Shown here: positions 5,360 through 7,148 of the stretch, piece after piece
How positions within the stretch are numbered: the first letter of the stretch is position 1
Layout: each line of letters opens with the position of its first letter
Assembly: GCA_965200315.1 (NCBI GenBank)
Contig: OZ241362.1
Coordinates: 2,272,001-2,336,000, forward strand
Direction of reading: 5' to 3'
Source: Candidatus Latescibacterota bacterium
GTDB taxonomy: Bacteria > Latescibacterota > UBA2968 > UBA8231
DNA: 64,000 nucleotides
Program-made: the position numbers and the translations under genes
Notes under the pieces: generated by a model
The model's database searches: none
Seen by the model: only the letters and a program-made list of their open reading frames with translations
What the model was told of the DNA's origin: nothing

Positions 5360-7069
5360 TCAGTAGGTGCGCTCTTGGGGCTGCCAGCGGGTAATGACGA
5401 CGTCTTGGTATTCGATGCGTGGCTCGCCATCGGTGCGATAGGCCAAGGAGTGACAGAGGAAATTTTCATCGTCGCGCTCTTCGTAGTCCATGCGCGAATG
5501 CGATCCGCGCGACTCCCGGCGCAAAAGTGCCGAATGAGCCACGGTCTCGGCCACGTCGAGCAGCGAGCCCAGTTCCAAAGCGGCCGTTAGTTCGGTGTTG
5601 AAGACCGATGAGCTGTCGTCAACCTGAACGCGAGTGTAGCGCTCCTTGAGCTTGGGCAACTCGGCGCAGGTCGCCTCTAGGCTCTCCTGTTCGCGGTAGA
5701 TGCCCGCCCCTTGCTCCATCGTCTTCTGCAGATCCGTGCGAATGTCGGCGATGCGCTCGCTGCCTTCGTTTTTGAAAAACGCCTGTTCAATCCGCTGCCA
5801 CTCGTCAGCAGCCATCTTCTTCAGGCTATCGTACGACGGTGAATTGACCTCGGCGGCATACTCGGCGGCATAGCGGCCGGCCCGCGCACCGAAAACCAAA
5901 AGCTCGGACAGCGAGTTGGAGCCGAGGCGATTGGCTCCGTTGATGGTGACACAGGCCGTTTCCCCGGCCGCGTACAAGCCCGGAATCGGCGTCGCCGTAG
6001 TAATGTCGGTGTGAATGCCGCCCATCATGTAGTGGACCACCGGGCGCACGGGCACCGGCTCGTACACGGGATCAATGCCCACGTAGTTTTTGGTCAACTC
6101 GCGTACGAAGGGGATGCGCTCGTCGATTTTCTTTTCGCCCAAGTGCCGCAAATCGAGATGGACGTACGTGCCGTACGGGCCGGAAAAGACCCGCCCGGCG
6201 CGCTCCTCGTGGACGAATGCCCGCGAAACCATGTCGCGCGGGCCTAATTCCATCTTGTCGGGCAGGTATTCGCTGAGGTAGCGGTCGCCTTTGTTGTTGA
6301 TCAAGTAGCCGCCCTCGCCGCGCGATGCCTCGGTCATCAAGATGCCCGTGCCCGGCAGCCCGGTGGGATGGTACTGGACAAACTCCATGTCCTTGAGTGG
6401 GCAACCCGCTCGGTAGGCCATGGACATGCCGTCGCCGGTCTTGATGGCGGCGTTGGTCGTAAAGGGGAAAATGCGCCCGCCGCCGCCCGTGCAGATGATT
6501 ACGGCCTTGGCGGGAATCGCCTGCATGGCACCTGAGCGCACGTTGATCGCTGCCACGCCACAGGCCGCGCCGTTGTCGTCGAGCAGCAACCGAGTGCCAA
6601 ACCACTCGTCGTAGCGATGGATGCGGTCGTATTTGAGCGAGGTCTGGAAAAGGGCGTGTAGCATGTGGAAGCCGGTTTTGTCGGCCGCGTACAGGGTGCG
6701 CTTGACCGACATGCCCCCGAAGGCGCGCACACTGATCCGGCCGTCGTCGTCGCGGCTCCAAGGGCAGCCCCAATGCTCCAATTGAATCAGCTCGTCTCTG
6801 GCCTCCTCGACGAAGACCTCGACTACGTCTTGGTCGGCGAGAAAATCGCTGCCCTTGATGGTGTCGAAGGCATGGGAGTCGAAGCTGTCGTCGTCGCGTA
6901 GCACCGCCGCGGAGCCGCCTTCGGCTGACACCGTGTGACTGCGCATGGGGTACACTTTGGACACCAAGCCGACGCTGAGATTCGGATCGATCTCGACAGC
7001 AGCAATCGCCGCCCGCAGCCCCGCACCACCGCCGCCTACGATTAGTATGTCGTGGTTAGGTATATTCAC
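5360..7069 (-). CDS. frdA: Fumarate reductase/succinate dehydrogenase flavoprotein subunit
   Basis: GGGGAGL FAD motif, [10 protein letters not shown] covalent-FAD His, [22 protein letters not shown]-terminal length fits E. coli FrdA, supporting the GTG start at 7069. Confidence 0.95.
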
Positions 7070-7148
7070 GTTTCAATCCACACCCCCGCACGGGGGCGAC
7101 CTTTTTGGTGGGGGAGGTTTCAATTCGCGCCCCCGCACAGGGGGCGAT
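7070..7148 (-). CRISPR. Two degenerate type I-C-like CRISPR repeats with a 16-nt spacer (orphan mini-array) directly upstream of frdA
   Basis: Minus strand: ATCGCCCCCTGTGCGGGGGCGCGAATTGAAAC (7148-7117), CTCCCCCACCAAAAAG (7116-7101), GTCGCCCCCGTGCGGGGGTGTGGATTGAAAC (7100-7070); fits the I-C pattern GTCGC-hairpin-GTGGATTGAAAC; no cas genes in window. Confidence 0.7.

Follow-up and report, generated by a model that had tools for sequence, protein, structure and literature searches.

The analyzed window comprises 64,000 nucleotides (nt) of a Candidatus Latescibacterota genome, here called G000, a single contig of 5.36 Mb in which the window spans 2.272-2.336 Mb; the sequencing runs containing this DNA carry the label sponge metagenome. 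The minus strand of the window encodes a flavoprotein with FAD-binding and C-terminal domains of the fumarate reductase/succinate dehydrogenase type, an iron-sulfur subunit, and also a membrane subunit in which a Fumarate_red_D domain was identified, a combination that makes "frd operon" a fair name for the locus. Upstream of frdA, the gene of the flavoprotein, lies the element under study, two units resembling CRISPR repeats, the distal R1 and the proximal R2, separated by a short C-rich spacer-like segment (Table 1). A preliminary description of this DNA had read the element as a type I-C-like repeat of 32 nt, a spacer of 16 nt and a repeat of 31 nt, fused with zero gap to the GTG start codon of frdA. 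This is the arrangement seen on the minus strand between 7148 and 7070, where the pair makes up the final 79 nt of the frdA leader.

Both the start codon and the absence of a gap are secure, since an in-frame TGA lies two codons 5′ of the GTG and the frdA orthologues, full-length in all 41 genomes searched, begin at the matching residue, with ATG as the start codon in the more distant, class-level relatives. An assembly chimera, raised in the preliminary description as a possible source of the arrangement, was rejected, the contigs obtained from runs of two studies showing zero differences over positions 6300-8000. Among the contigs derived from RNA libraries, one carries a single differing letter and another a 1-base gap at 7966, outside the element.

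Table 1. Features of the frd locus and solitary repeat units elsewhere in G000 (positions at the frd locus count from the first letter of the window; that of the solitary unit refers to the G000 contig).
Feature	Position	Strand	Remarks
R1, distal I-C repeat unit of 32 nt, the more degenerate of the two	7117..7148	-	ATCGCCCCCTGTGCGGGGGCGCGAATTGAAAC; tail starts CGA, not TGG
Spacer-like C-rich segment, 16 nt	7101..7116	-	CTCCCCCACCAAAAAG
R2, proximal I-C repeat unit, 31 nt	7070..7100	-	GTCGCCCCCGTGCGGGGGTGTGGATTGAAAC; abuts the frdA GTG
Leader segment, 57 nt, type B leaders only	7149..7205	-	from the alignment of seven carriers; absent from type A leaders
Promoter-like block	7206..7236	-	TTGCTC (7236-7231), 17 nt, TAATTT (7213-7208); common to both leader types
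frdA-like flavoprotein gene	5360..7069	-	GTG start at 7069-7067; 569 aa; Pfam FAD_binding_2 and Succ_DH_flav_C
Iron-sulfur subunit gene	4601-5359	-	downstream of frdA
Membrane subunit gene	3841-4749 (listed open reading frame)	-	Fumarate_red_D domain; true start probably later
Locus of a solitary unit (L020/L172)	226,222-226,295		ends exactly at the ATG of the gene for an 81-aa protein
Solitary unit			ends exactly at the ATG of a PhyH-family dioxygenase gene
Solitary unit			16 nt 5′ of pdxS
Solitary unit			25 nt 5′ of a lipoprotein gene
Solitary unit			13 nt 5′ of a short open reading frame
Solitary unit			overlaps what is probably the TTG start codon of a gene for an AAA ATPase (proteasomal-ATPase OB domains)
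Solitary unit			antisense, between two genes

According to the parts of PMC8524198 used here, a type I-C repeat comprises about 32 nt, arranged as (i) a 2-nt 5′ overhang, (ii) a 7-bp stem, (iii) a loop of 4-5 nt, and (iv) an 11-nt 3′ tail, the recognition triplet of Cas5c at the start of the tail being U-G-G in the enzymes studied there. R2 displays an overhang of 2 nt, a stem of 7 bp, a loop of 4 nt and the 11-nt tail TGGATTGAAAC, and the predicted folds of both units fit the I-C layout exactly, as local 7-bp GC hairpins with 11-nt tails and energies of -15.2 kcal/mol (R1) and -13.7 kcal/mol (R2). The tail triplet, TGG in R2 and CGA in R1, is variable among the genomes that carry the element. 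A chance resemblance is excluded, since the R2 31-mer, searched with up to 3 mismatches, finds only itself in the window, and none of 100 shuffles yields a match.

Comparison of 31 genomes of the genus, metagenome-assembled genomes labeled Candidatus Latescibacterota and including G000, discloses long arrays of 32-33-nt repeats with a period of about 66 nt in four congeners (G022, G008, G009 and G004). R2 is about 94% identical, with one or two changes, to the array repeats of G022, G008 and G009, whose arrays adjoin Cas5d-family matches (183-190 bits) and Cas1; the array repeat of G004 is more distant, chiefly in the loop. In addition, R2 shares the variant GGGGGTGTGG with degenerate repeats found at the G009 array's trailer end. 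Judged by sequence, the derivation of the frd pair from type I-C repeats is confirmed, and the identification made in the preliminary description holds with regard to congeneric arrays; its counterpart in curated databases is confined to sub-threshold matches to the Rfam family CRISPR-DR9 (20.4 bits for R1 and 19.5 bits; gathering score, 45), which leave the units outside that family.

The pair is not a working CRISPR array. Its spacer is about half as long as the approximately 34-nt spacers of the I-C arrays of the genus, the same decaying spacer recurs across seven genomes, and the flanks consist of frdA and an ankyrin-repeat protein gene (7257-8234, minus strand) in place of an array leader and cas genes. 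As stated previously, the window is free of cas genes, the four Cas1 matches of G000 lying at 0.13, 0.59, 3.78 and 5.36 Mb.

G000 has no array of the 32-nt repeat; nevertheless, the I-C system sought elsewhere in the genome exists in a divergent form, an I-C-like operon at 3,772,070-3,779,740 with the unusual gene order cas5-cas8c-cas7-cas3-cas4-cas1, in which Cas1c scores above its cut-off (411 bits) whereas Cas5 (43 bits), Cas8c and Cas7 score well below their family cut-offs. The adjacent array, at 3.78 Mb, comprises 27 repeats of 37 nt with the tail GGATTGAAAC; compared with the frd units, this repeat displays another stem and a tail starting with CGG. The same 37-nt repeat type also makes arrays in G019, G007 and G046. 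The additional arrays of G000 include two very large ones whose repeats end in GGGGATTGAAAC, of 246 repeats (129.1-147.7 kb) and 110 repeats (592.8-601.2 kb), and a fourth array at the contig start (1-900). Type III genes lie beside two of the additional arrays. The 246-repeat array adjoins a CRISPR-associated primase-polymerase and Cas1, and the 110-repeat array a type III-B Cmr locus; ATTGAAAC is the repeat end of further arrays of G000. Outside the I-C-like operon, Cas1 matches are found close to the 0.13-Mb and 0.59-Mb arrays and at the end of the contig. In G004, a solitary I-C-type repeat (G004:C1:35,967-35,983, L287) precedes the cas5d gene of a canonical I-C locus by about 150 nt, the usual place of Cas-regulating repeat-like elements.

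The readable frdA leaders of the genus comprise a shared promoter-like block followed by one of two forms. Type A, the majority form, is about 42 nt long, repeat-free and devoid of a Shine-Dalgarno sequence, with a T/C-rich tract before the GTG. Type B, about 135 nt long, consists of a 57-nt segment, R1, a spacer of 12-18 nt, R2 and the GTG. Alignment with the 176-nt G000 leader as the query reveals near full-length matches in seven of the 31 genomes (G000, G020, G021, G042, G013, G014 and G009, hereafter the carriers), which thus share the same alternative leader. The GTG follows R2 at 0 nt in G000, G020, G021 and G042, and after a duplication of AAAC in G013, G014 and G009; the spacer is orthologous in all seven, with a variable 5′ end. 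The 57-nt segment, single-copy in the G000 genome, contains a perfect 11-nt palindrome, AGAGGCCCTCT, at 7184-7174 (minus strand), followed by a T-run; the palindrome is intact in six of the seven carriers, with one change in G013, and might serve as a protein site or as a weak attenuator. In G042, the conserved leader segment preceding R1 harbors a 16-nt tandem duplication. The candidate promoter of the preliminary description, TTGCTC-17-TAATTT, is present and conserved in genus members with either leader type, and a sigma-70 consensus scan returned 0 sites, leaving this block uncalled.

The distribution of the two leader forms bears directly on translation initiation. The preliminary description placed the only Shine-Dalgarno-like tract (GGGGGTG) in the 3′ arm of the stem, so that folding or Cas5d cleavage would alter frdA translation; since most relatives use the 42-nt leader, with neither repeat nor Shine-Dalgarno sequence, and presumably express the gene from it, the tract would not be needed in this role. 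More generally, many G000 genes dispense with such a sequence, as a Shine-Dalgarno-like 4-mer, its spacing peaking at 6-8 nt, accompanies about 32% of crude open reading frame starts.

In genome pairs without frdA indels, identity ranges between 0.83 and 0.89 at fourfold-degenerate frdA sites, 0.81 and 0.97 in R1, 0.74 and 0.90 in R2, and 0.50 and 1.00 in the spacer. The repeats hence change about as fast as fourfold-degenerate frdA sites and display no visible constraint beyond neutral sites. For all 14 units (seven genomes, two units each), local hairpins are predicted, with energies between -8.5 and -15.2 kcal/mol and z-scores against shuffled sequences from +0.06 to -3.98, the former belonging to R2 of G014, the stem of which contains a C-A mismatch. 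The single-sequence fold of the leader has a z-score of -2.59. The consensus fold of the whole leader pairs R1 with R2, as expected of two similar palindromes, and offers no covariation support, compensatory changes being found at none of its 40 pairs.

The reading we favor, with a confidence only slightly above even, is that the frd pair represents array debris fixed in the frd leader, cotranscribed with the operon, forming two hairpins ahead of a Shine-Dalgarno-free start and exerting a modest, Cas-independent effect. A relic mini-array, made of two decaying I-C repeats and a truncated spacer, would have entered the frd 5′ untranslated region (UTR) in the ancestor of part of the genus, most of the 42-nt leader being replaced by the leader of about 135 nt. 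We infer from the sequence that this leader is transcribed together with frdABCD from the conserved promoter block, and that in the cell each repeat folds into a GC hairpin of 6-7 bp, with the GTG immediately after the 11-nt tail, AU-rich and unpaired, of the second hairpin. As on type A leaders, initiation would take place without a Shine-Dalgarno sequence. The effect on frd expression is probably small, since the element has survived where Cas proteins are missing and its drift is close to neutral; it may consist of mRNA stabilization or insulation of the start site rather than a Cas-dependent switch.

The preliminary description had instead raised the possibility of control of frd through cleavage by Cas5d. 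In a wider version of this scheme, the I-C Cas5, or the type III Cas6, would cut the hairpin bases of R2 and R1 in the genomes where the enzyme is present, leaving a leader of 11 nt (or 8 nt) with a 5′-OH end, releasing a short RNA similar to a CRISPR RNA (crRNA) and coupling frd to CRISPR-Cas status. The overhang, stem, loop and TGG tail of R2 are the features reported for Cas5c substrates in the portion of PMC8524198 used here, and G000 contains an intact-looking I-C-like system (the sub-cut-off Cas5, Cas8c, Cas7, Cas3, Cas4 and Cas1 with the 27 GGATTGAAAC-tailed repeats) in addition to the III-B locus and further arrays, so that cleavage in this genome is possible. However, the 37-nt repeat of G000 differs from the frd units as described above, which renders cross-recognition hypothetical, and the tail of R1 in G000 starts with CGA. 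Profile matches to the Cas5d family occur in nine of the 31 genomes, namely two of the seven carriers (G009 over the cut-off, G000 weak) and seven of the 24 non-carriers, and carriage is therefore not associated with Cas5d; no such match was found in the other five carriers, the single-contig G013 included. Cas1, found in 18 of the 31 genomes, was not found in the carriers G021 (94% complete) and G020 (77% complete), absences being less certain in G020, on account of its completeness, and in the multi-contig G014, G021 and G042. G009, the sole carrier with a canonical I-C system, has both unit tails mutated. Furthermore, the cut would strip the mRNA of its only G-rich tract, yet type A leaders need none. 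Together with the near-neutral rate of change of the repeats, these observations weigh against a role that strictly requires Cas proteins, and processing of the frd leader by Cas proteins is regarded as unlikely.

A further reading, touched on in the preliminary description through its mention of CreA/CreR-type regulators, is that the R1-spacer-R2 RNA would act as a crRNA-like regulator of the CreA/CreR/crlRNA kind, repressing a partially matching promoter when bound in Cascade. Two degenerate repeats around a short spacer correspond to the regulatory mini-array architecture presented in the sections of PMC10120712 used here, where such regulators lie in or beside cas loci; the frd element, at 2.279 Mb, is 1.5 Mb away from the I-C locus at 3.77-3.78 Mb. 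The frd spacer, with up to 2 mismatches, has six off-site matches in the G000 genome, within the range of 0-19 obtained with shuffled spacers, and its 5′ end, the would-be seed, differs among the seven carriers, most of which are devoid of the effector genes. TTC, the protospacer adjacent motif of such systems though perhaps not of the present variant, directly precedes a match to the spacer's first 11 nt at a single genomic site, G000 2,426,669 (plus strand), outside the window. The results argue against a CreA/CreR-type guide, for which no convincing target emerged, and such a function is very improbable.

Equally slight is the probability that the units serve as antisense terminators, a GC hairpin plus T-run of each unit on the plus strand stopping antisense transcription through frdA toward the promoter. 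Both units are indeed terminator-like on the plus strand (2 sites against 0.7 expected in shuffled sequences), and the sense-strand A-runs preceding each repeat are retained in all seven carriers. Against this stands the gene arrangement, as frdA fills 5360-7069 on the minus strand and no plus-strand gene upstream needs termination; moreover, the other solitary units lack such an A-run and type A leaders have no equivalent.

The frd pair belongs to a set of dispersed hairpin units, derived from I-C repeats and spread across the genus, that tend to lie at the 5′ ends of genes. A loose hairpin-plus-tail scan of the G000 genome proved too noisy (781 and 733 matches, compared with 588 and 583 in reversed controls) and gave way to a stricter one. 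Across the genus, the 17-mer GGGGAGCGGATTGAAAC with at most 1 mismatch is present in 22 of the 31 genomes, its reversed control being found in none. Solitary copies of the 17-mer outside arrays number one to six per genome. In G000, eight solitary loci were recognized, the frd pair and seven further units related to its I-C repeats (Table 1). A same-sense start codon follows within 0-30 nt at five or more of these eight loci, and at 0 nt at three. A crude null based on approximate gene calls places a same-sense start within 30 nt of 8.5% of random intergenic sites, and within 0-1 nt of 0.55%; the corresponding binomial tails, about 2e-4 for five of eight (by arithmetic from the 8.5% null) and about 9e-6 for three of eight at 0-1 nt, are rough, the loci having been picked post hoc and only tolerated insertions surviving.

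Several units occupy orthologous positions in different species, including the leader of the AAA ATPase (seen in 11 genomes), the antisense unit (at least six) and a canonical-type unit (four). In the AAA-ATPase family, the 5′ arm and GGGGAGCGGATTGAAA are unchanged in 10 of the 11 genomes while the loop varies, and the start codon is located inside the unit tail or immediately after it. The gene for the 81-aa protein looks leaderless, its ATG lying 8 nt beyond the end of a promoter-like box at 27 of the 29 loci readable in the genus; in G000 and G008 (L178), 59-70 nt are inserted exactly between box and ATG, with the unit at the end of the insertion, the non-repeat part of which holds inverted copies of the flank. 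At the dioxygenase locus, the unit is absent from 20 of 22 readable loci, where mostly a short spacer with a GAGGG-type motif precedes the ATG; in G000 and G008, an insert containing the unit takes its place. Outside their repeats, three insertions (frd, 226 kb and 103 kb) have no second copy in the G000 genome.

Further variation was observed around the solitary units. The 9-nt tail GATTGAAAC is tandemly duplicated two to three times at several loci (among L269, L273, L282, L288, L270, L274, L285 and L281), and the start regions of the 'MESCDF' gene and of the AAA ATPase in G010, G022, G012 and G021 resemble mutated tail copies. One unit family is part of a coding region, inside its 3′ end, where translation gives a GERIET(IET)n tail; the whole hairpin is kept in some species and its 3′ half only in others (L279, L272, L288 versus L269, L273, L282).

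The main rival to the array-debris reading, to which we assign a clearly subordinate probability, is a selected, Cas-independent cis-module, the hairpin and AU-rich tail having been recruited repeatedly as a portable 5′-UTR or intercistronic element that could act as (i) a stabilizing hairpin, (ii) an unstructured start platform, or (iii) in the GGGGAG variant, a donor of a Shine-Dalgarno sequence and start codon; the frd pair would be one case of such recruitment. The start-codon clustering in G000 and the conserved arm of the AAA-ATPase family are consistent with such selection, as is the persistence of units at orthologous loci in G010, G011 and G012, genomes without Cas1 or Cas5d matches; moreover, a rate test on 31 nt has low power. 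At frd itself, however, the near-neutral rate, the C-A mismatch and z-score of R2 in G014, the mutated tails of G009 and the sufficiency of type A leaders in most species all point the other way. As regards a Shine-Dalgarno donor, GGAG would lie 11 nt from the start, outside the genome-wide peak, and is missing from the frd units. The clustering itself is subject to the post hoc choice of loci and to the biased sampling of surviving insertions.

A broader version, doubtful to a similar degree, holds that single I-C repeats have repeatedly been domesticated as portable gene-start modules in front of unrelated housekeeping genes, including frdA, pdxS, the AAA ATPase, lipoproteins and the PhyH dioxygenase. 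The 11-nt tail would abut or even provide the start codon. Cutting at the junction of hairpin and tail, by Cas5 or Cas6 in genomes that have them and otherwise by a host RNase, would give short-leader mRNAs. If so, CRISPR repeats would be a source of 5′-UTR processing or insulation signals, and the solitary units could seed new arrays.

Five points weigh against array debris as the explanation of the frd pair. First, the I-C-like system of G000, whose repeats share the GGATTGAAAC tail, coexists with an R2 that shows every Cas5c-substrate feature given in the consulted part of PMC8524198. Second, the B allele is scattered on the frdA tree (first 1,500 nt), its members lying within one well-supported 15-genome clade interspersed with A alleles; well-supported branches force at least two changes, which implies recombination or repeated loss in its history. 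Third, a rate near that of fourfold sites may be compatible with weak selection on structure. Fourth, about 7 of 16 distinct solitary loci genus-wide end 0-1 nt before a plausible start codon, against 0.55% in the crude null; a purely neutral relic leaves this clustering unexplained, which hints at selection or directed insertion. Fifth, contigs from two RNA-library runs span the leader, one of them a 9.8-kb contig of DNA-like depth, and such contigs give no reading of starts, ends, strand, cuts or transcription. Such a concentration of solitary repeats at gene starts genus-wide is unusual.

Outside arrays, CRISPR repeats have mainly been described as regulators within cas loci or as weapons of phages. 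The portions of PMC10120712 (Shmakov et al. 2023) drawn on here define mini-arrays as two repeats 15-60 bp apart, one mini-array described there having a spacer shorter than regular, and report standalone repeats and mini-arrays as enriched within or next to CRISPR-cas loci, with repeat-like sequences depleted in the remaining intergenic regions. According to the same portions, these standalone units are suggested to arise from the terminal array unit, by ready recombination, and to be recruitable for other roles, while regulation of genes outside cas loci would be hard to detect (PMC10120712). The frd mini-array runs counter to the depletion pattern, being fused to a respiratory start codon and passed down through species whose cas genes have been lost, and solitary repeats 0-1 nt before start codons occur far above chance as estimated by the crude null. 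Should this placement reflect function or directed insertion, it would show CRISPR repeats leaking into ordinary gene expression signals; if neutral, the element would be a clean example of long-surviving array debris trapped between promoter and start codon, and a warning against inferring Cas involvement from repeat-like sequence alone. Within the terms and the library searched, the literature returned no report of CRISPR repeats fused to housekeeping start codons; the supplementary tables of PMC10120712 may list mini-arrays outside cas loci.

Compared with the standalone mini-arrays in the parts of PMC10120712 considered, the frd element is alike in comprising two units 15-60 bp apart, one of them degenerate, with a probable array-end origin; it differs in its distance from the I-C locus, its fusion to a respiratory start codon, its presence in seven species and its maintenance without cas genes. 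The CreA/CreR/crlRNA regulators, as far as they are described in the consulted parts of PMC9458426 and of bioRxiv 10.1101/2023.03.10.532045 and 10.1101/2024.12.27.630466, share degenerate repeats, a short spacer and a crRNA-like character, but act in trans via Cascade and reside in cas loci, whereas the frd element lacks a convincing target, linkage to cas genes and usually Cascade. The Racr RNA anti-CRISPRs, in the sections of PMC10651486 used, are similarly single repeats outside arrays that keep hairpin and tail; unlike the chromosomal frd-type units, which occupy orthologous loci in housekeeping leaders, they are borne by phages or mobile elements and poison Cas complexes. The constant position upstream of frdA in seven species and the housekeeping neighbors gave no sign of a mobile element, in the absence of a dedicated prophage scan.

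Engineered Cas6/Csy4 cleavage sites, which serve as 5′-UTR insulators, are synthetic and nuclease-dependent; they resemble the frd element in placing a repeat hairpin just 5′ of the start, whereas most frd carriers are without the nuclease and processing is hypothetical. Finally, repetitive extragenic palindromic (REP) sequences are GC-rich dispersed hairpins, intergenic or intercistronic, found in either orientation and persistent over species divergence, and a generic REP-like palindrome had been named in the preliminary description as an alternative identity. The solitary units are likewise dispersed GC hairpins. Nevertheless, REP elements reach tens to hundreds of copies per genome, whereas the 17-mer scan gives one to six matches outside arrays per genome and G000 holds eight loci, and the units are made of the I-C repeat sequence of the genus itself, including its single-stranded tail.

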